64,000 nucleotides of DNA. Origin: Rhina ancylostomus (lineage: Eukaryota). The notes below the pieces were generated by a model, which did no database searches, was not told the DNA's origin, and saw only the letters and a program-made list of their open reading frames with translations. Where the stretch lies: assembly GCA_030265395.1 (NCBI GenBank), contig JARFYF010000050.1, positions 22,729,076 to 22,793,075 on the forward strand. The letters are read 5' to 3'. This document shows, in pieces, positions 4,922-63,822 of the stretch; positions within the stretch are counted from its first letter, which is position 1; every line of letters begins with the position of its first letter. The position numbers and the translations under genes were made by a program.

Positions 4922-5057
4922 ATAATCTGCTGGAGCAACTCAGTGTGTCAAGCTGCATCTGTAGGTTGGGTGCGGGGTGGAGAAGGGATTGTTGATATTT
5001 CAGGTCGAAACCCTTTATCAGGACTTGACTTCAACATCTGCAGTCTCTTGTGTCTCC
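4922..5057 (+). mobile_element. PLE terminal fragment, inverted architecture, decayed hammerhead
   Basis: Minus-strand segment reads agtc-CTGATAA-agggtttcgacct-GAAAT-atc; joined to plus-strand terminus catctgcagtctcttgtgtctc. Confidence 0.75.
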
Positions 5058-8000
5058 TAGTTAATTGGCTCCCCATCCATCTCACTGAAAACATCCATTT
5101 CTTCTACCACTGACACACCAACAGTGAAGCATACATCACCTGAAAATTGCACTCCAGTTACTTGCCAAGGCTACTCCAAGAATATATCCCAAACTAGCAA
5201 CCTCTGCCACAGAGGGACAAGGATAGTAGACACATGACAACGCCATCACCTACAGGTTCCTCTCATCCCATACCATTTCAGTTTGGAAGTACATTACTGC
5301 TCCTTCATCATCACCAAGTTAGGATCCTGGAAATTTCCACCCAACGGAGGTGTAGAAGTATCTTCATCAGAAGGATCAAAGTGGCTCAAGACAATAGCTC
5401 ACCTCTGAGGAAATCACTGATGGCCAGCAGTCTAAGCAGTCACATCCTCATCTCTTAAATAAGAAAATGGCCCTCAGTCTATCACAGTCTATAGAACATC
5501 AGTAAAGAATAAATCAAAGGAGATTAACCAGACAGAATCTTCCCTTTGAAAATGAGGGTATATTATTTTCTTACAGCTTATTCTTCAGTTTGCATGAGGC
5601 AAATAATTGCATAATTTACTATTTATGTAATGCAGATGGGTTTAGCTACCAACTATTTCCATGGAATTGTATGACAATGCAATTCATTTGCTCATACCAT
5701 TTTAAGACTCTTTTAGCATGTGAGCATATTAAGACATTAGTTTGAAGCCATGTTCATCCATAGTTGGTGAATCATGCAGGTGTTTTAATATCCTGAAACT
5801 TTTGGAATAAATACAAAATAGATTTTAAGCTATCATACATCAGTACAGAGCAGTGGTATAGTGTATTATGGCAGCATCTGTACCTTTATTAGATTACTAG
5901 CATACAAGAGATTAACCTTCTTTTGTATTGTCAGCATGCTTTATTAACAGAATGTTAGCATCCATTCATACAAATAGGTAGCAACTGAAACAGGACATTG
6001 GAGCAAATCATTTTAGTTGCTTCAATCAATTGCACTTGGTAATTGGCTCCTGAACCTGATAATTCTGATGTTAATTTGTAACAACTGAAGTCAAGCACCA
6101 ATTAACCATCATATTTCCTGCCATTAACATTAGTACTAGTACCTAATAGATTCTTTTGTTATTGAAATGTCAAAATTTCCTGATTCAATTAAACATAACG
6201 AATAACAGGTTGTCAAATTGAAAATAACTCTCCCTGTATCGAGGAGGTCAGTTGTGACCTTAAGAATATACAAGGGAAATAATTGATACCCAGGAGAGTA
6301 GAGCAGGCAATGATCTCATTTTCTATATCCATTGGGAAGTATGAGGTGTCAGCTTTATGCTTTTCTGTTCTTTGCTCAAGACAATCCATGGGCACGTTGC
6401 TCAACAAAATCCACAGCAGAAAGACTATCTACCAAGAATAATCTTTAGTTTATTGAATGAAACAAGCAGAATATACTGTAATTATATGGTCAATTTCATT
6501 TGTGTGATTACATCCAGGAAAGGAGTTCCTTCTCGTCACAAGATAATATCAATGATTTTCATCTAAATCACATCTTGTGACCTGTAACTTTTAATAAATT
6601 GGAAATTAACAACAACAGTGGAGTAAGGGAAAAGTAAGAACAGTAAAACAAAAGTAGCAGCTTAAGAACAGAGGAAACAATAATGACCAGAAGCAAGGAG
6701 GTTGTTGATTAGTTGTATTAATTTGAAGCCTCAGGCTGCTAACACTTCATCAAAACGTCTCCTTTGTCGTTGCTAATAATATTAGAACTTCTCATTCATA
6801 CCACGATCTTATAACGGAACCACCATCATTGACTTCTCTCAATATTAAAAAGAACATTCATTCCAAAGAGCTCTCAAATTTCTTGGCAAAATGCTTCACA
6901 TGATTTAACATTTTCAATTGTATTCAACCAGCATTTTCATGACTGCCAATTAATATCTGAGGAACATCTTAACATTAAGTGATATTAAAAGTTCAATAGT
7001 AACCTCCCTATGTCAAGCTTAAGAAACAAGATATTAATACTTTGCAGACTATAATAACATTCAAAATTTAACAAGAAAATATCAGTTGATAAAGGGGAAA
7101 AAGTGCCAACAAGTTGGATTGCTTCTATGAAAAGGCTCACATTAAATATTTTCCAATAAACTACAGCTGGATCTTCCACTGGCTGCTGTCAGCATTCACC
7201 CTCCCTTATTTGGAGCACCCTTCCAATTGTGGTGCATACCATATATAACATATACACACACAAACACACACTTTTTTAAAATATAAAAAGTCAGTCAATA
7301 CAGAATAAAAAAAGCATCTTGTGGCTATTTTCTTTTAACAGTAACTTTAAGATTACAAATTGCAGTACTGGATCGGAGGCAGAATTATGAGCAACACATT
7401 CCTCTCTGCCCCCACTGTAAATCACTGCAGATTAGAAAGAGATTCACATAGAGATTTAACTTGTTATTGTTGATGAAAAAGATTTGCTGATTAGAAGCAC
7501 AAGACAGTTACAAAAATGCTTCATTATTTCAATAAACTGTACATTTTTTTGTAGACTCATAGCCTCGATAATTCTAGTAGGAAGCCTAAATGAAAGACAG
7601 ACACTGTCTGCTCAGGAAAAGGAATCTTGGCCAGAAAAAAAATGCAAACCTCAAATGGAACAGTTTACACAGTTCACAGTAAGCACCAAAAAATTTAAGA
7701 AATAAAAGTTCTGTAACGTACCTGAAATTCTGACTCTGTCCATTAGTACAACAAACAGCATTTAGTGGTATCCACAGCACACAGATTATCGTACCAGGAG
7801 TTGCTTTTCTACAAGTGCCTGTCTGATACAATTTCTTCAATCTGTGCAATCATGAATGCACCATATTACCACATTACCATGTGCTGATCATATGTTTGTA
7901 CCACACACTGAAGCAGCATTGTCAGCTTGTGGCTTAAAAACTGAGCACGTGACTACATTCATAAGCTTAAAATAACCTACCAGAAGACGGCAACTGTGTT

Positions 8001-8829
8001 TCCTAAATATACATCTGTACAATGTAATTCTACTGATAATAATTTAAAACAAATTGTTCAAACTTAATTTTGGATAGGAGTTTAAAAAAAGTTTCACCAT
8101 AACATTAGATTATAATGCTATGGCTGCTTTTACCTTGATAAAGTGATTTAATCTCCTTTAGTCAGAATGACAATTATATAGAGAATATAAAGGTGAGGAT
8201 GATGATACTGCACTTCAATTTACTGGAAGGAACTTTTATGAAATATCACAAGAGAATTATTCAAAGCAATTACTAAGTAGTTCTAGAATTGAGGCTACAT
8301 TGCAGCTTCCAACAAAAGTCAAATGTATTATTTTCCACCACTTAAAATTTTAACCCAATGCATTATAGTCTTTGGATTCCCAACAGGCTAGCTTGAGGAC
8401 ATCAGAACAGATGTGCTAAGAATGGTTTCAGAATAGATCAGGTTACAAAATGACAAATAATAAAAGCATCCAATAAAATGACTGCACAAGGGGGAACGGA
8501 GCTGAATTAACATGGTACTTCTTGTAGATTAAGCTACTATATAGACAACAAAGAACACTGTACAAAATTAGACAATGCAAGTGAAGAGTGACAAAGTGAC
8601 CAAATGATAGATCAAAGTGGATGTCATTTATCATGCTCCTTTACCCTATAGATTGTCACATCATTACAATGCTGACATTTATTAAATAAAACATTTTCAA
8701 AAATTTCTCATTGTAAAATTTTATATTATTCAAGTTTAACTGATATGATTGCCAAGTTTACCAATCTAACTTGCTTCATAATAGGATCTGGGGTGCCTAT
8801 CAGAAGGCTCAAGTCACAGCCAGTGTTCT

Positions 8830-9185
8830 TGTTGGGCAGTCGATCAGAATCAAGGACTGCTTGTTTCCCTTCCAGTTTTGTGGATTCTGACTTGGTTAAT
8901 GAGGCCGATGTGGGAACCACAGACTCTTCCACAGATGGGGAAGGTGGTATCTGACTGGGTGGGTGGATCGTAAGGGCTGTGCTCCTTCCGGCACTTCAGG
9001 CTTCTGTGTGCTCCAGATGGATGAATTCCAGATTCTTAGTCCCATCCTGAAGGCTTCTCTACTTCGAGCAGTCATGCGCCAGATATCCCCAGGATTAAAG
9101 GTGGGGATGTTGCACTTCTTCAGTGAACCTTTGAGCACACCATTGTAACTTTACCCCTGTCCACCTGGTATTCTCCTCCCACGAC
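8830..9185 (-). mobile_element. RTE-clade LINE 3' end
   Basis: GRRIPGGQG*SYNGVLKGSLKKCNIPT and DTTFPICGRVCGSHIGLINQ resemble the RTE C-terminus (GGQxKRYKDxLK; CxxCGRxCxSxIGL). Confidence 0.8.
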
Positions 9186-9329
9186 AGAGATTGGATTAGA
9201 ATGTCCATATACATACTCCTTGGTAAATACAATTCTTATTTTAAAGCAGGAAGACTGGATTTTTAAAATGGCGAATTAGGCCACCTCATGGAAATGTTAA
9301 CAACCTACACCATGGGATTCTAAAAAAAA

Positions 9330-11180
9330 GTTTTACAAAATTTGACAAGGAGCCTCTTAAGGAATATTAAGGTTAATGACCAAAACACTGACCAAAGATT
9401 AGAAGAGATTATTAAGAAGGGGAAGAGAGATTGTAGGGAATTCCAGAGTTTAGGGCTTTTGTAGCTGAAAGCATGACAACTAGTTGGGGAACAATTAAAA
9501 TTGGGATGCTCAAGAGTGGAATGGAAGGAATGCAGGTCTGATGAAGATTACAGGAAAAGAGGAAGGACTTGAAAACAGATGAGACTTAAAACCAGGAGCT
9601 AATGTAGGTCAACAAGTACATTAACAATGAGTGAACAGATTTAGTTCCAGATATGTAGCAGAATTGCAAATAAATTTGAATGTACAGAGGGTGAAACAAG
9701 GGAGACACTGCACTGGAGTCTAGAGGTAACAGTGGTATTGACAAGTATTTCGACAAGAAATTAGCCAAAACAGGACAGAGTCAAACTAGGCAAAAGAGTT
9801 GGGATTATCCAATATTAATTGTGGTACAGTTGTGAGATCTGAAACATATTTCAGGATCATTTACAACAGCAGGGTTGTAAGCATTGCGGTTCTGCTTGGA
9901 TGGTTGCTGGGGAAAAAAATGGAGTCAATCTCCAGGGAATGGAGATCATGATGGGAATAAGGACAATGTAAAGTTTATCTTTGAGAACATTTCTGCACTC
10001 TGAAAGTGTGTCAATATAGAAATAGTTGAGGGAAAATATCCATGACTGCGTGGGTTTCCTCTAGATGCTCTGATTTCCTCCCACATTGCAAAAGACACAT
10101 GAGTTAGGAAGCTGTGGGCATGCTATGTTGTTCCCAGAAGTGTGGCAACACTTGTGGGCTGCCCCCCAGAACATTCAACACAAAAGATACATTTCACTGT
10201 GTGTTTTGATGTACATGTGACCAATAAAGATATCTCATCTTAATATTCACGCGGAATAATAATGCAGTGACTCAGATGATATGGTCAAAAGGCACAAGTA
10301 AATGAGGCCATCCTGAGGAGATGCTGGAGGGATATCAGACCAGCAGTGCAGCAGCAGGAAAGGCATCCTTTGCGTGTGGTCTTTTGCCCATTATTGAATG
10401 AGAATGGAACCGGGCAACTGAAATCCCACACCACTTAGCTGATGGACAATCAAAAGGCTGTTGAGGAGTATAGTGCAGCCACTCAGGTCACAGCCTGCAG
10501 AAAGATAGAAAAGATGAATTGGGGAGATATGGGGATGGGGGTGGGGTGGTTGGGTGATAACACATCATCATCAGAAAGATGCCATTTACTGACTTTGAAG
10601 ATGAAACCAACACAGAAATTATCAGTTGCATTTCAAAAAGGGGCAGAAACCTCAGCAGAATGTTAATGGCAAGAATGGGAAGAATGAACATGGATCTGGG
10701 AAGCTTCAATGTTTCTGAAAGACTGAAGTGGGAGCAGAGGTTGGATATGGGGCAGTAGCTTGCAAAGAAAGGTCAAGAGTTGGTGTCTGGGGAGAATGAC
10801 ATCAGTAGATTTGAAGAGGGGTTCAACAGCCAACAAAAGAAAAGCACTAAAAGTACTAACAGGAGAGCCAGTTTCAAGGGAAAAGAGACAAAAGGCATTA
10901 AGAGGTGGGCATTATGAACAAGATGAACTTAGGGGGTAGGAGGAAAAATAAAAAAGAAAATGAATAAGGGAGAGACTTCAAGGTTAGAGATGGTTGGAGA
11001 AGCATCAGACAAGTTTGGTTGGCAAGGAAAACTGCAAAGGGTGGTGATTGGATGGCCTCAGTCTAATATATCTTAGACCTCTGATTTGTTGGAGGTTAAG
11101 GCTGTAAAGGAGTGCTTTTTAATGTAGGCAAGAGGATGTTGAAGGAATGGGAGAACTGTCATATTTGCAAGGAGAATGCT
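9330..11180 (-). mobile_element. highly degraded L2-type LINE, interrupted by a V-SINE
   Basis: Purine-rich tract with reverse L2-like motifs (agggaattccagagtttagggc, gaggtaaca). Confidence 0.5.
10040..10241 (+). mobile_element. 5'-truncated V-SINE with Rex1/Babar-like tail
   Basis: V-core gcgtgggtttcctc..tttcctcccacatt; tail catttcactgtgtgttttgatgtacatgtgaccaataaa. Confidence 0.85.
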
Positions 11181-13055: not shown

Positions 13056-15564
13056 GATGTCAAGTGGTAGTGCTTTCATATGATAAGTGGATAGAAACCA
13101 GAGAAATACAATCTTTTCCTACCGGATTGTTAACATCACTCTTATAAATTAGCAACCTCCATCTGTGGGTAGTTTATAGTTCACAAGGTGCCTGATTAAG
13201 AATGGGTTATCATTCTTCTAATGCACTTATTTTTGGAAATTTATCATGTAGCTAACAATATGTAAAATATTACAAACTTGCAAATCAAAAAACTGGAAAC
13301 CCATTTTAAAATACTGGACAATTTATTGTATATAAAAAGGTGGGATATTCTAGTAAACAAAGATTATAGTAAAATAGCCAGTTATTTGTTGGCTTCTTTG
13401 TTACAAGCTAAATTATTAAACCGGCCATTTATTCTCACTGCAATGTCACTGCATTTCTTGAAGCCATCACAGACATTGCTGGCCAGCCAAGTTAGCTTTG
13501 GGCAATCATTTATGCCTCATATATAGAATCCATTTAGATTTTTTAAGCATTAAACAAAACTCATGCAATTACAAGCTCAGTTCATCCATTCCTACCTCAC
13601 ATTCTTGATAAAATCAAGCACTTCTGTTTGAAATACAAAACAATTTCAAGCTTCAACACACAAAAGAAAAGACGGCTCATCTTGTCTGATTTCTTCTTGC
13701 CTCCAGCCATTTTAAAATGTTCTTTTAACTCAGACTGCAACTTCCTGTTGAATCACAATCTGTTCATTTTAGACACAAACACTTCAGATAATCATGCATC
13801 TTTGCTTTACTTAAGTTGTCAAATGCAACAATTTATTGTACTCCAGGCTGCACTAGAAAATGTCAGTGCAGAGACAGTTTTGGTCAGATTAAAGAATTGT
13901 TGTCAAAGGATCAGTGTTTCTAATCCAAATACTAAATAATAACTGGAANNNNNNNNNNNNNNNTGAAGATAGCTAATAAACTATCCAACTGTCCAAAATA
14001 CTGAGAGGTAACCTAAAGTGTATAGTGAAGGTGCTTGCAGAGGGAAAAAGGCTGACCGAGCCTTTAACTTAAATACTCAGAATGATATACTTCAACCAAT
14101 GAATTAGAATTTGTAGTTATGAATCATTGGATTTCAGAAAAATTAGCCAAAGACCTGACTATAATCATCAATCTCCAACCAAAAAGGAATAATGTGCTCA
14201 CAGATCCCGGGGAACCTAAATGTTCCATTACCCACAAAGGAAGGCAACATTGGAAATGTAAAACAAAAATGTTTTCAAAACATCACACCTGGCAGTGGCA
14301 ATTTAAAATTGCATTTCTAGAACCTTTTTAGGCTGTGTGTCACAACAGGGTTCAAAATACATATCTATAATTCAAAAGTGGAGTCATCGCTTAGAAAGGA
14401 AGCTGAACAGAATGCAGTAGGATCTTTATCAGATAAATTCTAAACTCTGTTATAGAGCTACAAACAGTTGTACATTTCAAAAAAGCCCACAAGGAAAGTC
14501 ATACTCCACACTGCCCTGGACTTTCCTTCATCTTCCATCCCAGAATTACCCAATGCCTTCACTTTCATTGTCTCACTATGTGCCCGACTACTCCCACGTT
14601 AGTGGTTGCAATTTTCATGTGTGCCAGGGAAGAAGGGAAGAAGTGAAGCAGCAACATTTCAGATGAAGCCCAGGAGTTAAGTTCTTTGGATCTGAGATGT
14701 ATACATGCCAATGGTGCCTACATTTACAACTCTAGATCATCCAAGACTCATTATGAGCCAAGAGCTTCTGGTTGTGAACTGCCACTGCCAATAGAGATCA
14801 AAGCATTCGCTCTAATCCTCAATTACTTTAGAACATGCACATAGAAAAGATCTCAATAAAGTGAAAAGACAAAGAAACAATAATATTTAAACTGGTCATG
14901 ACCAACAGTGCAAAATGGGCAATTCCGTTGAATCTGTTAGTGGAGTGTAAACAGGTTGCTATTTCTTTTTTGTCCATTTGGTACACTCGCCCAAGAGAAA
15001 TTTACTTCAAAATCTTTAACATTTATGCAATTTATAATTTTTCTGGTCCTCATCATGAAGTGTGTCCAAGCAGACCCAGCTTACTGGTGGTTATAATCAT
15101 CTTCCTTGCTCAGCAAGGCTTGAAGGCTTTCTCTAGTCTTTTTTATTCCATTGTTTTTACCAAGTGCATTATGTAATTGGACTGAATATAATTCTACTGT
15201 GACAGTCAGTATACCCATTGAGTCCAGAGAGGAAGCAATTGTTATCAATCGATATTACAAATTAACTCTCAAATAAAAGGAAACTAGATTAAGTACTGTG
15301 AGAAAATTCTGCAAACTGCAATGAATGCAGTACACATCACCGCAATCTTAGAACCATTCCAAAACAAAATTACAGGATGACATTAATAAAAGGAGCAATT
15401 TGTGTGCAAGTAATTGGTTCAGAATCCATTGATTTAGATGTGGAGTACAACACACCACCAATATTATATACGCCTTTAGTGTAAACAACAGTTTCCACTT
15501 GTGTGAATGATTTATTAATACGTAATAGTCAACTAAAGATCAAATAGGGAATCCAATGGTCATC

Positions 15565-15695
15565 TGGTCCAGATTTAGGTCTCAACCCAAAATGTCGATT
15601 TTTCAATTCTGTCCACAGACACTGGCTGATCCACTGAGTTCCTCCAGCAGTTTATTTATTGCTCCAGATTCCAACATCTGCAGTCCTGTGTTGCT
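15565..15695 (+). mobile_element. PLE terminal fragment, decayed hammerhead
   Basis: gtccagatttaggtctcaacccaaaatgtcga..ctgagttcctccagca..gctccagattccaacatctgcagtc. Confidence 0.7.
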
Positions 15696-16729: not shown

Positions 16730-16871
16730 GACAAGAAATTCTGCAGATGCTGGAATCTGGAGCATGTGGACCTGATGAAGGGTCTTGGCCCGAATCGTCA
16801 ACTGTTTATTTCCTTCTGTGGATGCTGCCTGACCTGCTGAGTTCCTCCAGAACTATTTTGTGTATTGCAAC
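16730..16871 (-). mobile_element. PLE terminal fragment with inversion and 10-bp TSD
   Basis: TSD gacatcagaa at 16720-16729 and 16872-16881; plus-reading CTGATGA-agggtcttggccc-GAATC-GTC at 16772-16799; terminal segment inverted on the left. Confidence 0.85.
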
Positions 16872-17690: not shown

Positions 17691-19579
17691 ACAGCAAGAA
17701 ATTGCCCTATTGGTGAAAGGTTTAGGAATCAGAGGATAAAGAAGGAGAATGGCAAAGGAACCAGGAATGACACGACAGAAAACATTTCATGCAGTAAGTG
17801 GTCATGATCTGGGATCCGGTCTCTAAAAGGGTGGAGGAAGCAGATTCAATTACTTTCTAAAGGGAAATGAGATGATACTTGAGGGAGGATAAAGTAGTAT
17901 GCAGACCATAGAGCCAAGGGGAAATGGCTGAGAATGGAACTAACCGGCTTATTCCTTCCATGCTCTAAAGATTTTAAATCACTTGAGCAGTCCCATTGAT
18001 AATTGAGCAAAAAATTTGAGGATACAGCAAGAAAAAACAGTTACAGTATTGCATGGTTTAGTTCCAGCACATCCTCCACAAATCTTACGTGGCTGCTTCT
18101 TGAAAATTCATTGTGTGCTTGAGGTTACTACAGTATTTTGGGAGCCTCATGGGATCAACAATGAGTGAAGAAAATGCTGTCGAAATAAACTCCGAGGAAA
18201 ATACCACCCTCTTGCTGGTCTTTATCCAAAAATCTAAAATCTAATTTCTGCAAGACATTTTCTGAAATGCTTATAACATTTTTCAAAGAAATACATAAAA
18301 GGAGAAAACTGAACTGACTGCCAGCTTCACATATCCTGGTAAACTGCCAGCTCCAATGTCTGCTTCAATTGCCACTATTGTTAAAAGAGCAGCAGCAAAC
18401 AGCCAGAGATTTTTTTTCCATGCTCAAGCTTTTGACGAATGGTTATGGCAAAATGAGAAGTGAGAGCAGAAAGAAGGAGGACAATAAGATTGGTACATTT
18501 TATTTTTGGGAGCAAGAGAGAAGTTACTTCTGTAGGAACTATCACAGCAGCCATTGCCTAGAGCAAATTTAACGAAATCTAGGAGGTTAAGAAAACATTG
18601 GCTCTCAACTAAATATCTTATGTCTGAAGCTACAATCTAAATGCAATGTATATCTGCCAACAACCGTAGTCAAAAACAGACCCATTGAGTGACTAGAGCA
18701 CCAAAGCCTTGAGTCCCTCCTCCAAAATCCCGCATCTGGACTGCAGTTTTAACCATTATACCAGCATTTTGCCTTAAAGAAAACATTAAACTAGTTAGTT
18801 AAAAAAACAGAAAAAAACATTGGCAAGGTCAAATGGGGTTTGACAAGAGATTTCACCCGATGGAATTGGCAAATAAGTTGGAAAAAAATATTTCATGTTT
18901 GAAAATTCTTAGTGAAGTCCATGTGGATTAAAATTATTTAATGTGCCACTGAATGGAGACCGCAGAATTCAAAGAGAATACATTTTAAACCAAAACTAAG
19001 ATCTTTTTTGCTAATAAATCTCTTCTGTGCAAAAACGTGGCAGGAACATGGTTGAATCACTGTGTGACTCACTCTTCAGTTAAAGAAGCTTTCTTCAAAA
19101 GAAGAGCACTTCAAACAGCACAAGGTCACATGCAAGACTTTTTAAAATTTACTTTGTTAAAATTCAGTTCGAACTCTTTCAAGGCAAATTCCTTTGCCCC
19201 ACGTTCAGGCAATTCAAATTTTAAATCTCAAAGCCTCATCTCCTTTCTTCATTCATTTGTCTTAATGTTGTAGCCAGAAGGCAGCTACACAGCTTGATCC
19301 CAGTGTTACTAATGCTGTGGATCACACAGTTATAACTCTTTTCCCAGACGTCTCCCAATCCACACTTGATGCAGTTCAGAGCAGGTATCAAATGAACTGC
19401 AATTACAGTCAGTGCACTTTATGGTGCAGATTTTTCTTAACATTTTGTCTTTACTATAGAATCAGTTATACTTAGTCTTTCAGAAAATGGAAGCAGGAGG
19501 GGAGAAATTAAAAACAGTAGATGTCCTGGTATAGACTATACAAGATTGCATTGCAGGCTTTTAAAGGAATATGTTCCAG

Positions 19580-20165
19580 GACGACTATTTGGGGACAAGG
19601 TACCTTCAATATGGAAGAGGACACCAAGTGTGGCCTCCTGAGGAAGTAGAGGTGCTGGTGAGCTTTCTTTGGTTGTGGTGTCTATGTGGCGGACTAGGAC
19701 AGGCTGTTGGTGATGTTCACTCGAGAAACTTGAAGCTTCCAACCCTCTCAACCTCAACACTGTTGACGGAGACAGGTGAATGTACATTGCCCCCTTTCCT
19801 GAAGTAAATGACCAGCTGTTCTGTTTTGCTGACATTGAGAGAAAGGTTGTTGTCATGACACCATTCCACTAAGCTCTCTATCTCCTTCCTATACTCTGAC
19901 TCATCATTATTTGAGATATGACCTACAAAGGTGGTATCATCTGCAAACTTGTAGATGGTATTAGAGCAGAATCTGGCCACACAGTCATGAGAGTATAGGG
20001 AGTAGAGTAGAGTAGAGGGCTGAGGACGCAGCCTTGTGTGGCACCGGTGTTGAGAATAATCATGCTGGAGGTGTTGCTGCCTATCCTCGCCAATTGTGGT
20101 CTGTTGGTCAGAAAGTCAAGAATCCAGTTACAGAGGGAGGTGTTGAGTCCTAGGTCTCAGAGATT
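19580..20165 (-). mobile_element. Rex1/Babar LINE RT fragment
   Basis: [43 protein letters not shown] motifs; frameshifted. Confidence 0.9.
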
Positions 20166-20169
20166 GGTG

Positions 20170-20312
20170 ATTGGAGGCATTGGAGGTTATGGGAAAGAGG
20201 CAGGTAGGTGGAGCAAAGTCCATGGCCAGATCAGCCATGATATTAATAAATGGTAGAGCAGGCTCGATGGGCCAGTTGATCTACTCCTGGTCCTATTTCT
20301 TATGATCTTGTG
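20170..20312 (+). mobile_element. CR1 3' tail (second tail type)
   Basis: agatcagccatgat..gagcaggctcgatgggcc..tactcctggtcctatttcttatg. Confidence 0.75.
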
Positions 20313-20614
20313 TTCATTGGCAGAAATTCTTATCCCATCATTTCAAAATTTTGCCCATGGGTGTGCTTATGCAAACATTTCAAAAGCTTGCACTCACATG
20401 TGTGATCAAGTATCATATATGTATTTGAAAAGCTACAAACCTTTCTCCCCAAGTGTCCAGCTTAACATTTGCATTATGTCTAGATGTGTTAAAAATATAA
20501 ATCTTCAGTGCACATGGAGTCACAGAGCAGTCGTCAGTTGTGGCAGGGCTTACATGCCACAACGGGCTACAAAATGAAGTTGGACAGCATAGTTAATAAC
20601 AGTGCATCCATTCC

Positions 20615-21360
20615 AGATTAGCTTAATGTATTCTATGCACATTTTGAACAGAAGGGGATTGGTTTGTCACCACCCACCCTGACAGCCTCCAATGCAACTG
20701 AACCCGTGGTCATCATTGAGGATGCAAGGTCTGTCTTCCGGAGAGTGAACCCGAGGAAAGCATCTGGCCCGGATGGTGTCCCTGTCAGTGTGTTCAGATA
20801 TTGTGNNNNNNNNNNNNNNNNNNNNNNNNNNNNNNNNNNNNNNNNNNNNNNNNNNNNNNNNNNNNNNNNNNNNNNNNNNNNNNNNNNNNNNNNNNNNNNN
20901 NNNNNNNNNNNNNNNNNNNNNNNNNNNNNNNNNNNNNNNNNNNNNNNNNNNNNNNNNNNNNNNNNNNNNNNNNNNNNNNNNNNNNNNNNNNNNNNNNNNN
21001 NNNNNNNNNNNNNNNNNNNNNNNNNNNNNNNNNNNNNNNNNNNNNNNNNNNNNNNNNNNNNNNNNNNNNNNNNNNNNNNNNNNNNNNNNNNNNNNNNNNN
21101 NNNNNNNNNNNNNNNNNNNNNNNNNNNNNNNNNNNNNNNNNNNNNNNNNNNNNNNNNNNNTTGTTATGACCTTGCACCTTAATGTCTACCTGCACTTTCT
21201 CTGTAGCTTAATCTGTATGACACTTTACTCTATATTCTGTTATTATTTTTACCATGTGCTACCTCAAAGCACTGTGTACCAAATTGATCTGTATAAACAG
21301 TATGCAAGACAATTTTTTCCACTGTACCTCAGTACAAGTAACAATAATAAACCAATACTT
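20615..21360 (+). mobile_element. Rex1/Babar LINE spanning an assembly gap
   Basis: FRRVNPRKASGPDGVP before the gap; 3' UTR ending ctgtacctcagtacaagtaacaataataaaccaatac after it. Confidence 0.85.
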
Positions 21361-22230
21361 CCAGTTATCTTGTGCATTCATTGCAGGTGATACTGCTATG
21401 CCTTGAGACCCCATAACCCCAGCAGGAAGGGACATTGGCAAATTTATATTTAAATATTTAATCTATCTTTCATATTAGATGCCTTTCAGATTATTTTAAA
21501 CTTTATGCAACCCTTATTTTCAGTGATCTTGTTGCCATGCAAGCCTCTCCAATCATCTGCTTTTCCTTTAAGATCTGATTGTTATAAAATTGAAACCTGA
21601 TCAACCCACGGCCAATCTGAAGCTGACCTCAGCACTTGTATTTTCCACACCCAACCATCATCAGCATGCCGAAGATCTGGTTGAGGTCTGAAACACTCAG
21701 CTGAAAATAAATCCTATTAAGTGCAAACAAAAGAAAAACCCAAAAATGTCATGGCATGAGAAATTATAATAAGTTAAGTTGCACCATATTGATACAAAAT
21801 ATTTTGAGGGTCTTGGCTTCAAAATAGCCCTGTGAAAGCATGTCACTAAACTCACCATTTTTATTATTTAGTTTCAAGTAGAACCATTTGCAAATGGCAG
21901 AACACCAAATACAAATAAAAGACATTTATATAGAGGTTTTCTTATGAAGTAAATCATCCCAACTTGGACAACCAAGCCAGACCAACATGGCACATACTGA
22001 TCCAACTCAAACCCAAAATGTTTGATCAGAATATTAACAAATGGTTTGGCTCTTCGGGCTTGGGTCAGGCGGTCAGGAAAGGATAGTAATACCTGGGTTT
22101 TTCTTCATCGCAAAGTGCTCCTTCCACACTCTCCCTTTTGTTTCCTATCTTTCACTTGTTTGATTGTTTTCAGTCAATAGCATTCATTGGTAGCACCCTC
22201 CTAGTTGTACCCATGTGTGTCCAACAATAA

Positions 22231-22542
22231 TACAGGCTGTCCCATGGTTATGGATGCTCCACTTATGGTCACCACTAGATATGAACAAGCTCCCTTAATA
22301 TCATCAAGTTCAGAAGTCCAACAATGTACATATATTCATTCCTACAAATGCTTCCTTTCTCTTTCCACTTTTAGTAACTGTTCTTTCTTTTCAGTCTTGC
22401 GTACTTTTGATGACATTTATTACAATACCAAAGGAGGTAATGTTACCAAAGAGTGATGTTTGTGTATTTTCCAACTTACAGACAAAACCAACTAATGGAA
22501 TCTGTAAAACAGAACCCATTTATTACCCAGGTATGACGTGTT
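22231..22542. mobile_element. degraded Tigger/pogo-like (Tc1/mariner) MITE
   Basis: Starts TAcaggctgtcccatggttatg, ends ttacccaggtatgacgtg (imperfect inverted termini); internal ccacttatg/ccaacttaca repeats resemble CpG-decayed CCGACTTACG. Confidence 0.5.
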
Positions 22543-24049
22543 CTCCCCACCATCCACCCACAAGAAAATATCTAGTTTTCTTTACTGGTTTCCACAGCAT
22601 TAACTTTATTTTTATTTTACATAATGTAGAAGTTTATGGTCAGTGCAAGAGGAATTGGAGGCAGTTGAGAGCAAAAAAAAAGGATGGAAGGAAATTATAG
22701 TGGGTGAGGAACAGAAGCAATGCAAGATGAAAGGTTATGGATATAAGGAAGCCCAGATGATTGGAGAGATGGAAGGAAATAGACGAGACACGATACACCG
22801 ACGGAAGAGCTAGGTGAGCTAGCAGGCAGTGGAGGAAATGGTAGTGGAGGAATGGCAAGATAAATTAGCAGCATTCCTTCCTCATTCTTTTCTACTTCTG
22901 GTTTCAAAGAAGTCAGGACCCCCAAACAAATATGATACAAGAGTGACCCTCAACCCTGGTTAAATTCACGTGGTGCAATCCAAAAGGTTGACAACTGATC
23001 AATTCAAGATAAACAATGTCCCTGGCTAGAACACTTCCTCAGCCAAGCGCTGATGCAGCTGGGTTGTGTGGCCTGGCTTGTAGACCCAACAGTAGAAAGT
23101 GGAGTCTCTGGCTCATTTCTCTACTGTCACAATAAAGAAAAAATGTTTTTTAAAATATATATAAAAAGGGAGAACATGAGAAATGAAATAACAGACAACC
23201 AAAAGTTAGCTTTTCTCTGATCTGGTTTTAATTCTGCTGTTGGTTCTTGAGATTTTCTAAATCTAATATAAAACTCATAATAAAAAGGTAGCCATCAAGA
23301 TGGTTACATGCAGAATATTGGCACTGTAGGTGAAATCCTTTGCTTTGGAGTTCAAAAATGTCTTTAAACAAAATAACTATGATGGTGAACACAAGAGCCC
23401 AGTAAACTCATGTGCTAGCATTGAGGTTTCAGTAGATTCCTGGACTAATGAGGATATAAAATGTACCAATTGCTTCTTTCTTTTACTTATATATAAAAAA
23501 TTATGCTACTGATCTGGCACAGAAGAGTTAATAAAATAAAGTCCCTTTCTCTAGGCCAAGAAACACCTTAATGGCAATATTTCTAACATGGATCTCAGCT
23601 GATAAAATAAACTGAGATCATTGCTGAAAATCTACTGCTGGAAAATAGCAAAAATTGCTCAGGAGGTTTTATTATGCTTTAAAATGATTTTATCCAACCA
23701 GACACACAGTTTCTTATTAAAACAAAAAAAATCTAAATACAGTAGAAGCTTGTGTCATATTTATGGAGTTTAAAGCAAGGGTTTTGAATAGGACGTTTAA
23801 AATAACACGGTATTTTCACACACTCTAAACTGTGGTATTGGAAAAGGAAGTTCCGGAGTTGGCACAATATTTTGAGTTCATTGAAATGGTTTTCTTGGGT
23901 ATTTCTGAAATACTGCAGTTAAAGATGTGGCTTTTTTCTTCAACTCTCAACCATTCAAAGAAAGAATGTGCATCTATAGTGACACTTTTCACACCGTCAT
24001 GAAACCCCAAATGCATGACACCAAAGAAAGAAATGCTGATAAACTGATA

Positions 24050-24213
24050 ATAGACTATTTTTGATATGTTAACTGAGGCACTAATATTAGCCAGGGCACC
24101 AAATTTTCAAAATAGCTCCATGGGATTTTCTACAACCTCAAATATAGGTTCAGTGGGACTTAAGCCCACAACCTGTGGACTGGGATGTTACCAACTGAGC
24201 CAAGACTGACACC
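24050..24213 (-). mobile_element. DeuSINE (SacSINE1-like), internally deleted
   Basis: tRNA-like head ggtgtcagtctTGGCTCAGTTGG..GGCTTAAGTCC; Deu core aaatcccatggagctattttgaa..ccctggctaatatt..cctca. Confidence 0.7.
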
Positions 24214-24691: not shown

Positions 24692-24812
24692 TGAAAGTAA
24701 AATATTGCAGATGCTGGGTTTAGAAGTAAAATAAAATCCTTGAGGTGGTCTGCAAGTCAGGCAGTGTCTGAAACAGTTAATGTTTCAGGAGAGGAACCTT
24801 TCATCAGAACTC
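24692..24812 (-). mobile_element. PLE terminal fragment with both hammerhead core boxes intact
   Basis: Minus strand agtt-CTGATGA-a-AGGttcctctCCT-GAAAC-att-aact; stem I agtt/aact, stem II AGG/CCT. Confidence 0.7.
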
Positions 24813-25028
24813 ACATTTGCCTCCCATCAAGGTGTCAAAAACAATTAGAAACAAGGAATAGTTAACGGTTTGCTTTTGTTTCTCACCCACACCTCAGAGC
24901 TTTTAAGTTCTGAGAATATTTTTGATGCTTTGTTAAACTTCCCCATGCAATCATCTTGTGGCATAACAGTACTCTTGATATAAATCCTCATGCAACTAAG
25001 GAAAACAGAAACAGAATTAAAATCAAAA

Positions 25029-26400
25029 TCTCCAATGTAATGGAATCCACGCTGTAAGCACCAGACACCATATACTAGATTGGATGAGTGAAAAATAAAT
25101 CACTGCTTCACTTGGAAGGGCTGTTAGGGTTCATGGATGGTGGGTGACGTACATTGGAGAAAGCAAATTCAGACTGAGTGAACACTTTGAGCAGTGTTTG
25201 TGTTCAGTACTGTAATATGAAGGTTAAAAGCAGATCTTTTACTCAAAATGGAGTTGTCAGCCCACTGTCTTCACAATGACCAGGTATGTTAATCAGGAAG
25301 ATACATAAAACAGAAGGTCTTAATTCATCAGGTCCTTGAGGCCTTGTAGCATGCAGACGTGTGGCATTAAGGAATGTAAAATTACAAGATAACTTGTTTT
25401 TTCTTGGAGATGAGTGAAACTGGTTCAGTTGATAATGTAAAATTCATTAAGAAATAATTAGTTTTAGAATTGTAGCTGATTGAAATGTGCAGATTAGTAA
25501 AGCACAGACTTCCTTGATTATACAAGTGCGAGTAGTGAACAAGCTCATTGGACCTCTCCTTGGACGGAAACCGCGATTGGTGCCAAGAACCTCAGATTCT
25601 CCAGACCAGTCATTGTAAATCAGAGTCCACGACAAGCAGAAGGACATGAGACTTGTTCCTTCATCAATTATTTTTATACTGTGTTTGAGACATACCGCTT
25701 TGTATATCATGCAACCTTGAAGTGTTCATTCTCCCTCATTGATCCAAATCCTCAAAACCTGCTTATTTCCCATTACGGGTGCACAGGGCCTGAGCTTCCT
25801 GTTTCTGCCACTTCAAGTGTCCATCCCATTTCTACTCTAAATCAACTGCACTGTAATTACAAGGTCTAATGTAAACTTGAGAAACAGCACCATGTCTTCT
25901 GCCTGGGCACATAATAACCTTCCAGACTCAATATGGAATTCAATCACTTCAGGTAACTCCAGTTCTCTGCTTGTATCAGAACTGGCCAGTTCTAATGCAA
26001 GTCCTCTATCTGTACTAATGGCTCAGTTTTGCCCCTCTCCATTAGCAAGTCCTGTCTCCATTAGCATTCCCTACAGCTCTGCACTTCAACATTCCTTAGT
26101 GTTCATTCTCCCTCTATTTGCTCCTCCCATCTCATAGCTTTAAAGTTTCTTTGATCAGATATTTCTGTATGAGAGCACTCATTAACCCATCAACTGGATA
26201 ATGTCATCTACAGCAGTTCCCCACAATATCAGAGATATTCCCATTATCCTTTCCATCCCACCACCAAATCTCTTTGCAACTTAAAACTTTCTTTCTCTCT
26301 TTCCCAGTTCTAAGGGTCTTTGACGTGAAACATCAACTCTCTCTTTCCACAGATGCTGCCTGACCTGCTGAGGTTTTCTAGCAGTTTGTGTTTTCATTTT
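25029..26400 (+). mobile_element. Penelope-like element 3' part (GIY-YIG endonuclease pseudo-ORF, UTR, HHR remnant) with 5' inversion
   Basis: Minus 25145-25029: PTIHEP*QPFQVKQ*FIFHSSNLVYGVWCLQRGFHYIG; plus from 25150: YIGESKFRLSEHFEQCLCSV; 25870-25956: CKLEKQHHVFCLGT**PSRLNMEFNHFR*; terminal repeat at ~26305-26400. Confidence 0.85.
25211..25777. mobile_element. probable solo LTR nested in the PLE endonuclease
   Basis: 567-bp interruption of the GIY-YIG frame; termini TGTAATatGAA..TTCccATTACG; flanks agtac/ggtgc (5-bp TSD with two transitions). Confidence 0.6.
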
Positions 26401-26409
26401 TAAATCAAG

Positions 26410-29321: not shown

Positions 29322-29485
29322 GTAAAAAAAACTGCTGGAGGAATTTGGCAGGTCAGGCAGCATCTATAGAGGCAGAGTGAGAGTCAACATTGAGACAGGA
29401 CCCTGATCAGGACAGCCAACTTGCCGAGTTCCTCCAGCAGGTTATTTTGTGCTCCAGATTCCATAATCTGCACTCTCGTGTTGTT
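29322..29485 (+). mobile_element. fold-back PLE terminal fragment with TSD
   Basis: ctgctggaggaa..ccctgatcaggac (reverse) joined to gagttcctccagcag..gctccagattcc; flanks atttacttaaat (29310-29321) / atttatttaaat (29486-29497). Confidence 0.8.
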
Positions 29486-33205: not shown

Positions 33206-33299
33206 GAGCAAAACACAAGCTGGAGGAACTCAGGAGGTCAGGCAGCATCTGCTGAGACAGAGGGATGGTTGACATTTCGTGCCGAGACCCTGCATTATG
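33206..33299 (-). mobile_element. PLE terminal fragment
   Basis: Minus strand ATAATGC-agggtctcggcac-GAAAT-GTC; possible TSD aatatag (33199-33205, 33300-33306). Confidence 0.75.
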
Positions 33300-36505: not shown

Positions 36506-36727
36506 AGACACACAAGAAACTGTAGGTGATGGAATCTGGAGTAAAACACAAACTGCTGAAGAAACGTAGCAGGGTAGACAGCATCAGAGGAGGGAGATGG
36601 GTAGTCAGTGTTCGGTTTGAGACTTGTCAGTCCAGACGAAGGGTCTTGACCCAAAACATTGACTGTCCATTTCCCTCCACAGATGCTGCCTGACTGGAGT
36701 TCTTTCAGCAGTTTTGTTTTTTTTGCC
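36506..36727. mobile_element. fold-back pair of PLE terminal fragments
   Basis: Right arm CAGTC-CAGACGA-aGGGTCttGACCC-AAAAC-ATT-GACTG (36628-36665) keeps stems I and II; left arm is the reverse complement of the same repeat. Confidence 0.85.
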
Positions 36728-38094: not shown

Positions 38095-40864
38095 GCACGA
38101 TAGCAGATCAAAAAGTAGCATCTCCAACATTGTAATCACTGGATTACCTCAGATGCTATGTGCTGGCAAGTACAGGAGCAGTAGGATGGGTCAGATGAAT
38201 GTGGGTTGAATTGAGGACGTAGGAACAAGGGTTTTAGATTTCAGGATCCAGAGACCATTTCAGGAAAGGTGTGACCTCTACAGGCCAGGTAAGTTGCATC
38301 TGAAACTCCTTATTGGGGAGGTTTGCTAACTCTGGTGGGGGGGGGGGGGGTGGGGGAGTGGGAGNNNNNNNNNNNNNNNNNNNNNNNNNNNNNNNNNNNN
38401 NNNNNNNNNNNNNNNNNNNNNNNNNNNNNNNNNNNNNNNNNNNNNNNNNNNNNNNNNNNNNNNNGGTTTGCTAACTCTGGTGGGGGGGGGGGGTGGGGGA
38501 GTGGGAGGTTAGAGGAATGGGACACAAAGTGGGAGTACAGTAAGGGGGTGAGGATCAGACAGATATAGAAAGAAAGCTAAGTCAATCTGGTGAGTGCAGC
38601 AAATTGACTTGACAAGGTACAGGGGAAGAATGCAAGGCTGAATTGCATTTATTTTAAGACAAGCAGTCTGACAAGCAATGCAGATGAACAGTGGGTGTTG
38701 ATTAATATATATAGCAATATGATATTGGTGCTTTCATTGTTTAGGCAGAGTGAAACACGACATTTCATGCATGATGGGTGGGGAGAGTAACAGAATAGGG
38801 CCCAGCACCAGTCCTTGTGGTAGGTCATCGGTCATAGACTTCCAGCTGTGAAAAATCTTTGGGAATCTAGGTAGGGAAGAGGGCAGAGTGTGGGTGGGAA
38901 ACCACTAAGAGGTTGGGACCATACTCCATAGGTTCTAAGATATGAAGGAGGACATGGATGGATGAGAAGTTAAAGCTCTGAATCGGAGGAACGCAGATTC
39001 AACATGTAAAGACAGGAAGCAGCTCCTTCCAGTTAAGTCTACATGCAACCACAAGAGTCATTCAAAGTGAAACAGGGAGAGTTCAGGGCCATTGTTTTCC
39101 CATGATGGTGAAAGCCAATAAGTTCAAGGAACCCTGGATATCAGAGGATATCCAGAGTCTAATGAGATGCACCCAAGGCCACTACAGGAAGCAATGGAGA
39201 TTGCTAGGGCTTTGTCCGAAATCTTCAAACCTTCTCTGACCAGATGACAGGAGAACAACTAATGTAATGCTTTTAGCAACGATAAACCAGGTAATTACAG
39301 GCTAAGTTTAACATCAGAGGTGGGGAAATTACTGGAAAAAGTTCTGAGAGACAAAATTAATCTGCATTTGGAGAGGCACAGATTGATCAGGGATAATCAG
39401 CCTGGCTTTGTTGAGGGGAGATCCTATCCAACTAAATTGATTGCATTTTGAGGGAGGCAAGAAGTGTGTCAATGAGATTAAAGCACTTGATGTGCTTTAC
39501 CTGGACATCAATAAGGCCTGTGTCAAAAGTCCCACGTGGGAGACTGGTCCAATAAAGTAAGAGTCCATCGGATCCAAGGCAATTTGGCTCTATTATTCCC
39601 TTGGTGATAGGAGGCAGTGGGTGAAGCTCAAGGATTGCTTTAGTGATTGGAAGTCTGTGATCAAAGATGTATCACAGGGACCCTTACTGTTTGTTATTTG
39701 ATTAGCAATCTAGACATGAAAAGTAAGGAGGTTTGATCAGTTTGATCAGCTGACAAAGATTGGTGGATTTATTGATCATGCAGATGGTAATCTTCAGCTG
39801 CAGAATGATATGATCAGTTGTTAATACAGGCAGAGAAATAGCAGGTGGAATTCAATTCTGAAATACATGAGAGGTGATGTGTTTGAGGACGACTAATAAG
39901 GCTAGGACACACACAATGAATTGCAGAACTCAAAGTAGTGCTGAGGAACAGATGGATTTTGTGCACATATTCAAGGATCTGTGAAGACAGTAGCACAGGT
40001 GATAAGGTGGTTAAAAAGGAATACAGGATACTTGCCTTCATTAGTAAGAGCAAAGCAAAACTCAAAGAGATCAAGACACGACAACACAAAACATTGGTAG
40101 GTCACAGTTAGAATACTGTGACCTGTTCTGATCAGCACACTAAAGGAAAGACGCAATTGCACCAGAGAGGGTGCAGAGAAAAGTCACCAAGGAGGTGCCT
40201 GGGATAGAGAATCTGAGTTACAAGACACATAAACGACCTGGCTCATTGTCTCTGGAGCAGGAAAAGTTGGGGGGGGGGACCCAATCGAGATCTGCTTAGT
40301 TCTGAGGGCCATAAATAGGTTTCCTGCCCTCTTGATCAATCCATCACCCACACACTCCTCCCACCAGTTGCCCTCCTTCCCTCTATCCCATAGTCCACTG
40401 CCATCTCCTATCAGATTCCATCTTCTTCAGCCTTTTGTTACTTCTACCTATCACCTCTCAGCTTCATTCCCACCCTCCCCTCTCTGGCTATCAACCCCCT
40501 CACCTGGATCCACCCATCACCCACCAGTTCTTGCTCCGCCCCTTCCTCCCATCTTTTTATACAGACTCTCTCTCCTTTTTCTTTCCAGTCCTGATGAAGG
40601 GTCCCAACTATTTCCCTCCATAGATGCTGCCTGATCCACTGAATTGCTCCACCTCCTTTCTGTGATGCTCTGGATAGCAAGAAACTTTTCTCCTTAGCAG
40701 AGATATCCGAAACCAGAGGGAGTGGGTTGAAAATATTTGAGGATTTGAGCAAGAACTTTTTTCATTCGGCGATGGCCAAAATCTGGAATGCAGTACTGGA
40801 AGGGGTATTGGAAGCAGATACCCTCACAATATCTGTGAGGTATTTAGATGAGCATTTGAAACAC
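38095..40864 (+). mobile_element. long degraded CR1 with ORF1 SGNH-esterase remnant and ORF2
   Basis: KSSISNIVITGL..QMN..DLYRPGKLHL (esterase DGLHL-type motif); ORF2 start CIYF..NADE; DKPGNYR, GKLLEKVLRD, YLDINKA. Confidence 0.75.
40320..40672 (+). mobile_element. PLE pyrimidine-rich 3' UTR plus truncated HHR, nested in CR1
   Basis: cagtc-CTGATGA-agggtc at 40586-40603, GAAAC box deleted, then agatgctgcctgatcc. Confidence 0.75.
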
Positions 40865-45149: not shown

Positions 45150-45640
45150 TTGGTAATTGGTTCATTATTGTCACATGTACTGAGATACTGTGAAAAGCTT
45201 TGTCTGCATGCCATCGAGGTAGTACAAAGGAAAAAAACAATAACAACATGCAGAACATAGGGTTAAAATTGTAGAGAAAGTGCAGTGCAGGTAGGCAATC
45301 AATATGCAAGGGCCATGACAAGGTCAAGAGTTTGTCTTTATTGTACAAGAGGTCCATTCAAGAATCTTATAACAGTGGGATAGAAGATAGAGGAATCTTT
45401 AATTATGTTGGCTGCTTTCCTGAGGCAGTGGGAAGTGTAGACAGAAGTTAATGGAGGGGAGGCTGGTTTTCATGATAGACTGAGCTGTGCTCACAACTCT
45501 CTGCAATTTCTTACTGTCTTGGGCAGAGCAGTTGCCATACCAAGCTGTGATGCATCTGCACAAATTGGTGAGGGTCATTAGGGACATAAGGTTCTTTAGC
45601 TTTCTGTGGAAGTAGAGATGCCGGTGTGCTTTCTTGTCCA
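45150..45640 (-). mobile_element. Rex1/Babar LINE 3' end
   Basis: CITAWYGNCSAQDSKKLQRVV..TSLPSI; reverse tail ttattgtcacatgtactgagatactgtgaaaag. Confidence 0.88.
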
Positions 45641-62579: not shown

Positions 62580-62832
62580 ATTGAATTCTCCCACTTGAAG
62601 TAATCCCCACACCCCTTTCCCCTACCACATGCCCCAAACCATGCCTCTTTTCTTCCCTTTCCTAGCCTATTTTTTTTACTTACCCCTTTCTCTCTCTCCT
62701 TACCTTTGACCCATCCCCTGGTGGATCTGCTCTCCCCACCTCCCCCACACCTGCCTATCACTATCTCTTACCTGCATCTACCTATCACCATTTCGTGCCC
62801 ACCCCGCCTCCCCGCTTGTCTACCTTTCACTG
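62580..62832 (+). mobile_element. PLE ORF end and pyrimidine-rich 3' UTR (runs into gap)
   Basis: IEFSHLK* (62580-62603) parallels MEFNHFR* ending at 25956; cctatcac motifs shared with 40320-40672. Confidence 0.65.
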
Positions 62833-62932: not shown

Positions 62933-63077
62933 TGTGGGAGGAAACCGGAGCACCCGGAGGAAACCCACGCAGACACGGGGAGAACATACAAACTCCTTAC
63001 AGACAGTGGGCGGAATTGAACCTGGGTCGCTGGAGCTGTAATAGCGTTACGCTAAGCACTTTGCTACCGTGCTACCC
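62933..63077 (-). mobile_element. V-SINE head and core (tail in gap)
   Basis: Reverse complement of the 26908 element: gggtagcacggtagc..GGTTCAATTCC..gggtgctccggtttcctcccaca. Confidence 0.9.
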
Positions 63078-63102
63078 TGTTACCACTACCATTAGCACAT
63101 CT

Positions 63103-63252
63103 GGTTGAAGACCTGTCATCAGAAGGGGTAAGAATCTTGACCCCTTCTAATGCCAGGTCTTCAACCTGAAAAGTTTTTCTTTCCTGACCTGCAGAGTGTT
63201 TCCAAGATCTTTTGCTTTTATTTCAGATTTCCTACATCTAGACTTTCCTGTC
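63103..63252 (+). mobile_element. PLE terminal fragment with 64-nt fold-back
   Basis: ggttgaagacctg/caggtcttcaacc inverted arms; downstream cctgacctgcagag..tttcagatttcc. Confidence 0.7.
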
Positions 63253-63269
63253 TAAACCTTGCTAAAACC

Positions 63270-63822
63270 CATATAGACAACATTAAGTTTTCCTTGACTG
63301 TCCTGCTGGTCTTGATTAACCTATGTCTTTCTGAATGAAAATTTATGCTCTTCCTCAGCACTGATTCCAACAATTTGCCTACAATCCAAATTAAACTAAC
63401 TGATATATAATTTCTTGGTTTATCACTTCCTTTTACAACTCTCATTTTACAGAAGCAACAAGCAATTTGTTGGAGGAACTCAGCGAGTTGAGCATCATCT
63501 GTGGGGGGAAGGAACTGTCGAAGTTTCGGGTTAAAATCTTGCATGGGTCGTAATGCAGTGTTTGGACCCAGAATGTCAACAAGCCCTTTCCTCCCACAGA
63601 TGCTGCTCGACCTGCTGAGTCCCTCCAGCAGATTGCTCCTGCAGATTCCAGCGGCTGCAGTCCCTTGTGTCTCTACAACTTTACAGAACATTGCTGCAGC
63701 CAGAAAGGCTTGAAAAATCGTTGTCAAAACCTTTGCAATTTCATCCCTTGTTTTGTCTAACAGCCTGGGATATATTTTATCTGGGGCTGGTGACTTCTTC
63801 ACTTTCAAAGACGCTAAACCCC
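63270..63822 (-). mobile_element. CR1 RT fragment interrupted by a PLE fold-back
   Basis: LKVKKSPAPDKIYPRLL..EIAKVLTTIF and DKPRNYISVSL..VGKLLESVLR. Confidence 0.85.
63455..63673 (+). mobile_element. fold-back pair of PLE terminal fragments with TSD
   Basis: Two opposed arms meeting at ~63548; flanks tttacagaa at 63446-63454 and 63680-63688. Confidence 0.85.

Follow-up and report, generated by a model that had tools for sequence, protein, structure and literature searches.

Short end-pieces of a Penelope-like element stop at the edge of a predicted hammerhead ribozyme in Rhina ancylostomus

What kind of unit is a repeat whose short copies nearly all begin at the same few letters? The question is raised by a stretch of 64,000 nucleotides (nt) from Rhina ancylostomus (contig JARFYF010000050.1 of assembly GCA_030265395.1, positions 22,729,076 to 22,793,075), hereafter the window. 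The initial annotation described in it a dense family of short, hammerhead-bearing elements derived from Penelope-like elements (PLEs), with 5' ends clustered at the ribozyme. The family consists of old, decayed end-pieces of a PLE, which stop sharply at the predicted ribozyme edge. The window is repeat-rich, vertebrate-type DNA (38% GC, CpG observed/expected 0.18, 19 N gaps) and holds 11 loci of the family with 17 arms, a density of 11 loci per 62 kb of called bases.

The family profile was built from 11 arms, and the best score of 10 shuffles (8.6 bits) served as the cut-off. Fifteen arms lie above it, including three held-out arms at 40-51 bits; the arms at 5026 and 63124 fall below it and were taken in for an abutting partner or an 87% palindrome. 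A weak possible solo piece at 43166-43103 (7.8 bits, below the shuffle maximum) was left out. The profile search recovered the family at every one of the 11 loci first listed, and the statement that no copy is intact holds in the window. Compared with a 135-nt majority line, the arms are 71-90% identical, typically about 80%, and they average 62% identity to one another, which makes the family old. In the numbering of this line, the 5' strand of stem I occupies positions 3-7, the predicted cut follows position 35 and the tail ends at position 135. The arms form two or more sub-lineages, each mixing short and body-linked copies (13 arms in a weak tree, with support of 0.73 for the second).

The 5' boundary is the most distinctive property of the family. 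Position 10 is reached by 14 arms, and 12 of these have their end in positions 3-10, at most 8 nt from the 5' edge of stem I, a count that would become 10 of 14 if both arms at 63103 were read 10 nt longer. It omits a third body at 62580-62832, whose ribozyme would fall in a gap, and the piece at 43103-43166. Elsewhere, 5 ends occur in about 2,400 nt, and positions 3-10 exceed this rate of ends more than 50-fold (P about 4e-20 per arm and 2e-12 per locus). The 5' ends are therefore non-random, as had been held, and all nine short loci have at least one arm whose start lies at the 5' strand of stem I or about 10 nt from it at most, in agreement with the clustering first reported.

The letters at this boundary are informative. 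In eight short arms, the letter before the stem I T is G in seven (P 8e-5), and the preceding letters are A in three and C in two; homology therefore stops inside CAG. In the body-linked copies at 26305 and 40586, the CAG is preceded by 18/20 and 20/20 pyrimidines, and both polypyrimidine-CAG sites rank in the top 0.02-0.2% of 8,120 AG sites. Such a pattern resembles a 3' splice site, and an initiator as well. A donor-like site at 25950-25958, over the ORF (open reading frame) stop of the 26305 body, matches 8/9 letters and ranks in the top 0.6% of GT sites. P0032, a Hypanus sabinus gene model for a host-gene isoform, consists almost entirely of PLE ORF and ends with eight non-PLE residues at the position of the ORF stop. 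Such an ending would be expected of a used donor, and hints that the PLE stop codon holds a splice donor.

Most short loci are not simple units. Two arms stand head to head at six of the nine (4922, 16730, 29322, 36506, 63103 and 63455), so that the description of single elements of 100-220 bp had to be given up; 15565, 24692 and 33206 are single arms. A tail end shared by all copies had also been proposed, and it is found in only half of them: among 16 readable arms, the 3' end lies at 133-135 in 8, at 102-110 in 7 and at 28 in 1. The tail is the 30 nt between the two groups of 3' ends. All four scorable pairs (16730, 29322, 36506 and 63455) combine one tailed and one tail-less arm. In the pairs at 4922 and 16730 the unit is tiled with hardly any overlap, the tail arm spanning 99 or 105 to 135 and the other 4 or 5 to 104, and three letters of microhomology occur at the 29415 and 36628 junctions. 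Among 10 loci tested, target site duplications (TSDs) are significant at four (16730, 29322, 63455 and 33206; 7-12 nt), weak at 36506 and absent at five. The combination of pair, tail and TSD is known PLE anatomy in miniature, and it fits priming on two strands at two internal starts of reverse transcriptase (RT).

The PLE origin first proposed is borne out by ORF and GIY-YIG remnants at 25028-25165 and 25693-25953, whose relatives carry RVT_1 and GIY-YIG domains; the 26305 and 40586 copies do lie on longer PLE bodies. A decayed ORF end sits about 350 nt upstream of the 26305 ribozyme, separated from it by a pyrimidine-rich untranslated region (UTR). This remnant is 32-42% identical to the ends of PLE-type proteins, reaching 42% over 53 aa with P0026, and the longer relatives of P0026, named from Rhincodon, Stegostoma, Chiloscyllium and Hypanus, hold RVT_1 and GIY-YIG domains. 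The Stegostoma (shark) protein P0028 reads across the UTR into a peptide resembling a one-frame translation of the window ribozyme, which ties that ribozyme to an RT-bearing shark PLE and points to an elasmobranch as the probable host. A CX2-5CxxC linker is present in 8 of the 10 relatives listed, and the window remnant begins just after the linker position. This linker is assigned to Neptune and Nematis and not to Penelope/Poseidon (PMC8557442). The C-terminal GIY-YIG domain, the tail at one end, the inverted truncated copy and the short TSD are all features of endonuclease-bearing (EN+) PLEs. Judged by its sequence, the family is the hammerhead-plus-tail end of a Neptune-type (Neptune/Nematis) EN+ PLE, of which the 26305 copy keeps the GIY-YIG C-terminus.

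Other searches added little to this assignment. The window itself contains no RT piece of the PLE, Pfam returned no match for the ORF remnant alone, and neither did word-indexed protein searches with the remnant and the ribozyme-frame peptide. One of the 26 phmmer matches is a PLE relative (P0026), and two other checked matches are RCC1-repeat proteins. Atlas protein clusters were unnamed or HTH_animal only. A DNA pattern scan gave 0 matches in viral contigs and 6 in metagenome contigs, none extending beyond the pattern, while protein-seeded locus scans gave none in viral contigs and two weak, unrelated bacterial matches.

The GIY-YIG pieces at 25028-25165 (minus strand) and 25693-26400 (plus strand) are consecutive parts of the domain, 530 nt apart, and the first is likely the inverted arm of the 26305 insertion. 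Its candidate TSD (9/10, null 16/200) is not significant, and a longer-range TSD search was negative. The opposed pieces look like the product of an L1-type 5' inversion whose breakpoint is internal. The 24692 arm was considered as a spliced continuation of the minus-strand piece, an idea that was rejected: the intervening 216 nt are not ORF-like. The 30-nt stretch upstream of the 15565 arm (15538-15567) resembles the PLE ORF end and offers no more than a lead to a possible exon-joined copy; one of the 6 comparisons gave a chance of 0.6%, and 2% was obtained for a control that lies outside a TSD.

The initial annotation identified the conserved part as a minimal type-I hammerhead whose palindromic stem III has no loop, and the stem III here is ACGU. 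The core motif and the stem register sustain this reading, and the structure-based searches do not. Majority letters and the pattern of CpG decay restore the CUGANGA/GAAA/NUH core, stems I and II, and the palindromic 15.2-16.2 pair; 68% of cells are paired in the stem register, against 22-44% when it is slid. The core is likewise recovered from the contigs of four sequencing runs, described below, where 86% of the depth in X1 has C>T at 36637. In these runs the CpGs at 36652/3, 36657/8 and 36660/1 have decayed in both ways, C>T and G>A. On the other side, the scan with curated models that had been advised gave no hammerhead match in the window in Rfam up to E=1, RNAalifold found no common structure in the arms, and covariation in the arms was not above shuffles. 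The missing covariation and Rfam match are expected of copies that decayed neutrally, and do not support the ribozyme either. When the majority line is folded to minimum energy, stem II forms and the full hammerhead does not. The ribozyme is thus predicted from core motif, stem register and literature, not from covariation.

Two observations accompany this region. Loose-end lines in three of the four runs show A for T at 36654, the second letter of the CUGAUGA box, and the reference copy also has A there; this may reflect bias or a core-mutant sub-family. The fold-back pairs at 63094-63175 and 63482-63617 gave two Rfam miRNA matches below the gathering score, and hairpin RNAs or spurious miRNA calls could come from such loci.

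Contigs of 4 runs (of 14), from four related organisms, were aligned to 36430-36800. From 18,215 to 25,695 contigs fit this interval per run, which is not a copy number. The 36506 locus is present with its flanks in organisms D and E, and its insertion therefore predates their split. Joint figures refer to the 15 of 39 joint rows listed, among which 10 join opposite strands, and 9 of these 10 link 36627-36631 with 36659-36664. These nine rows comprise at least 53 contigs from all four runs (10, 15, 15 and 13 per run), and 22 of the 53 join at 36661, the first base past the predicted cut. The lengths on the two sides of the joints agree with head-to-head pairs that have one arm beginning at the ribozyme edge and a second beginning at the cut. 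This peak at the predicted scissile bond is a possible trace of cleavage in vivo, with template switching at stem I as a rival. The claim that 5' ends were not made by self-cleavage consequently stands for the nine short loci of the window and is unsafe for the family, since partner arms in the four organisms start at the predicted cut. In the X4 run only, one direct head-to-tail joint links 36691 to 36628, a tail-less unit being followed by a unit that starts exactly at CAG.

We give slightly better than even chances to the reading that the short insertions come from RT that began at one of two internal sites, lying 100 and 130 nt past the ribozyme edge, with run-off at the 5' end of the RNA. 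The template would be a hammerhead-tail copy near the 5' end of a PLE transcript, with the ORF downstream; in a partial tandem, the hammerhead-tail segment would double as the start of the next ORF. RT starting at this 5'-end signal would produce a run-off cDNA of 100 or 130 nt. Each nicked strand may prime one cDNA, one per start site, and the two cDNAs would be joined head to head via a few letters of microhomology, leaving one tail. The 5' end of the RNA would lie at the CAG, as a start or a processing site, and a smaller class of partner arms may come from ribozyme-cleaved RNA. Copying of a single RNA of about 131 nt from both starts would produce the tiling at 4922 and 16730. It has been reported for the anole Poseidon element PAc that each of the two target strands receives a nick and is extended (Frangieh et al. 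2024, PMC11167929), that RT starts at two internal sites bounding the tail, and that the template needs downstream ORF sequence (PMC11167929). In Drosophila virilis Penelope, the intron has its 3' end at the 5' end of helix I (PMC4209133), and most transcripts undergo splicing and start 46 nt upstream of the intron (PMC2377424).

Several points weigh against the run-off proposal. Arm boundaries were set by eye in 20%-decayed copies, and the sample of one window is small. The donor-like site is not found in the 40586 body (best 4/9) or the 62600 body (best 6/9), and the short copies share no common first exon upstream in the window, so that an ordinary spliced template is not supported. The tail asymmetry in 4/4 pairs has a chance of 0.06, and in three pairs the arms overlap widely, which would need two RNAs or re-copying. 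In the joint table a single orthologous locus may appear as many as four times, and the peak may be shaped by reference mismatches at 36653-36660. The upstream loose ends give a pyrimidine-rich majority line with an agreement of 0.34-0.46, against 0.64-0.68 where the element continues; many copies genome-wide therefore run into the body, and the short class makes up no more than a part of the family. For the anole element, the published study found no RNA reads with an end at the cut (PMC11167929).

Other origins for the boundary have to be considered. If the RNA extends upstream, RT may be stopped at the pyrimidine tract by bound splicing factors or by weak U-rich hybrids. This is unlikely in our judgement, even though the boundary is a strong acceptor-like site, many copies read through it as loose ends, and PLEs keep introns, which implies unspliced RNA as a template (PMC2377424, PMC3846280). 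Drop-off from weak hybrids should leave pyrimidines on the arms, and none of eight short arms retains more than CAG. A rather smaller probability is assigned to snap-back or template switching, in which the cDNA end pairs with the copy of the stem I 3' strand or with another CAG and synthesis then switches, yielding both the boundary and the near-cut joints with no RNA end or cleavage at all. The joints do link both stem I strands, the microhomology at 29415 and 36628 would suit such a switch, and palindromic inverted junctions have been described for PLEs (PMC3846280), 63100-63169 being an example here. Against it, only 5 of the 53 contigs in the joint rows listed are in the exact register predicted by the common stem-I letters, assuming non-overlapping alignment coordinates, and 15565, 24692 and 33206 share the boundary with no inverted partner.

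A discrete non-autonomous element of 100-135 nt, similar to a short interspersed nuclear element (SINE), a miniature inverted-repeat transposable element (MITE) or a retrozyme and mobilised by PLE protein, would account for fixed ends, TSDs and 11 loci in 62 kb, and non-autonomous PLE derivatives are known (bioRxiv 2026.07.22.740005; PMC8557442). We nevertheless consider it improbable. The pair structure differs at each locus, and the retrozyme that had been suggested meets both the lack of tandem arrays in the window (0/5 tandem-repeat rows overlap the family as an array) and a main boundary away from the cleavage site. The single SINE-like master, also suggested, is hard to reconcile with short copies clustering in at least two sub-lineages, each with a body-linked copy, although the support for these is weak (0.73 for the second). 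RT copies RNA from 3' to 5', and the boundary lies on the far side of the fold; the earlier idea of stalling at the fold therefore does not fit, given that the arms hold the whole ribozyme and a stall is expected at the 3' base of stem I, near position 40. A stall inside the three-way junction is possible for the minor class near 36661. Solo pseudo-long terminal repeats (pLTRs) left by recombination, the remaining earlier suggestion, would not give head-to-head pairs with asymmetric tails. Random truncation is familiar in PLEs, whose copies are often cut short at the 5' end, lone minimal hammerheads being read as truncated PLEs (PMC4209133), and it runs into the more than 50-fold excess of ends in positions 3-10. 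Truncation, stall and recombination are, taken together, very improbable.

The comparison with described systems places the run-off reading in context. Neptune-clade EN+ PLEs have RT, a C-terminal GIY-YIG domain and, close to the 3' end, a hammerhead (Craig et al. 2021, PMC8557442), and they show an inverted 5'-truncated copy beside the 5' end and a tail of 30-40 nt at one end, as here (PMC8557442). Their truncation is variable in that account, whereas most loci here are cut down to the final 100-135 nt, and their 5' boundary is fixed (PMC8557442). The Adineta vaga elements Pen2/Pen2a likewise have head-to-head pLTRs, a 31-bp tail on one of them and TSDs of 8-10 bp (Arkhipova et al. 2013, PMC3846280). 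Their pLTR holds the first 12-22 ORF codons, and the majority line here has an ATG frame at position 58; their inverted pLTR lies beside a long element and self-priming on an antisense template was proposed, whereas both arms are minimal here (PMC3846280). In minimal PLE hammerheads, stem III is a loopless palindrome and an extra base precedes stem II, as in the family; most of them are lone and some form opposite-strand pairs 100-700 bp apart, also as here (PMC4209133). The accessible part of that study has no endpoint analysis, no shark or ray family and no evidence of cleavage in vivo (PMC4209133). PAc resembles the family in RT starts about 30 nt apart past the ribozyme and in AT-rich targets, and differs in belonging to another clade and in an ORF that starts in stem II; its main text has no 5'-end analysis of genomic copies (PMC11167929). 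Non-LTR retrozymes are small, non-coding and PLE-derived, with a type-I hammerhead, and have been reported in one cartilaginous fish genome; they are head-to-tail tandem units, whereas the units here are dispersed, single or head to head (PMC7229834; bioRxiv 10.64898/2026.07.22.740005).

A title search, with repeat databases outside its range, turned up no title on a fixed boundary at the ribozyme edge or on a shark or ray family. The two classes of ends, at the ribozyme edge and at the predicted cut, are apparently undescribed; the element and its inverted, tailed anatomy are of known types, and the family is probably already present in Repbase and Dfam.

Table 1. Features of the hammerhead family and its PLE bodies in the window; figures in parentheses are majority-line positions, and null values are for TSDs.
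Feature	Position	Strand	Remarks
Hammerhead arm (4 to >=94)	4922..5025	-	Ends in N gap 4839-4921
Tail-only partner (~105-135), head to head with 4922 arm	5026..5057	+	27/30 identical to majority line; 8.4 bits
Single arm with tail (5-133)	15567..15694	+	No significant TSD
Tail-only partner (99-134)	16730..16764	-	30/34 identical
Hammerhead arm without tail (5-105)	16769..16869	+	TSD 16720-16729/16872-16881, 10/10, null 0/150
Single arm with tail, second sub-lineage	24692..24811	-	TSD not found
Decayed first half of PLE GIY-YIG domain	25028..25165	-	tblastn 43-47% to P0027/P0032; profile iE 6e-5
Decayed C-terminus of PLE ORF, stop 25954-25956	25693..25956	+	GIY-YIG remnant 25693-25953
Pyrimidine-rich UTR (65% pyrimidine)	25957..26304	+	Final tract 18/20 pyrimidine
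Body-linked hammerhead unit without tail	26305..26400	+	Starts with acceptor-like CAG
Hammerhead arm without tail (3-102)	29322..29415	-	Partner at 29416
Partner arm with tail (~61-133)	29416..29484	+	TSD 29310-29321/29486-29497, 11/12, null 0/150
Single arm without tail (~6-104)	33206..33299	-	TSD 33199-33205/33300-33306, 7/7, null 3/150
Arm with tail (~8-135)	36508..36630	-	Three junction letters common with partner
Hammerhead arm without tail (3-104), 87% identical	36628..36727	+	Predicted scissile bond between 36660 and 36661; TSD weak, 8/9, null 17/150
PLE UTR body, 77% pyrimidine	40320..40585	+	Final tract 20/20; homologous to 62600-62832 (80 vs shuffle maximum 67)
Body-linked hammerhead unit, 17-nt deletion	40586..40680	+	Starts with CAG
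Third PLE body (ORF end and UTR) into N gap	62580..62832	+	Absent from the initial list
Fold-back pair	63100..63255	.	Palindrome 63100-63169, 87%; + arm tailed to 63255, - arm ends 63103; inverted match E 4e-20
Arm without tail (~10-104)	63455..63544	-	Held-out arm, 50.7 bits
Hammerhead arm with tail (5-135)	63546..63673	+	TSD 63446-63454/63680-63688, 9/9, null 1/150

Other repeats share the window. Fragments of another RT-encoding non-LTR family lie at 19717-20171, 31921-32895 and 45243-45556; they are 80-92% alike and apparently younger than the PLE copies. SINE copies, presumably of the HE1/V-SINE type of cartilaginous fish, occur at 10040-10092, 26907-27058 and 62933-63078, the last adjoining the truncated 63103 arm on its left.

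The role of the hammerhead, the start of the RNA and the origin of inverted pLTRs and of the tail are open questions in the PLE literature. With about 11 loci in 62 kb and the family present in four related organisms, the ends can be counted genome-wide from existing assemblies. It is possible, though doubtful at present, that a very large fossil collection of run-off cDNAs from PLEs persists in shark and ray genomes and that four ends can be mapped in it, namely two RT starts, the 5' end of the RNA at a splice-acceptor-like CAG within hammerhead stem I, and the ribozyme cut. If this is true, the pairs of tailed and tail-less arms would show two-strand priming by a PLE dimer, and genomic evidence for cleavage in vivo by a minimal PLE hammerhead would come for the first time, within the reach of the literature searches, from the joints at the scissile bond.

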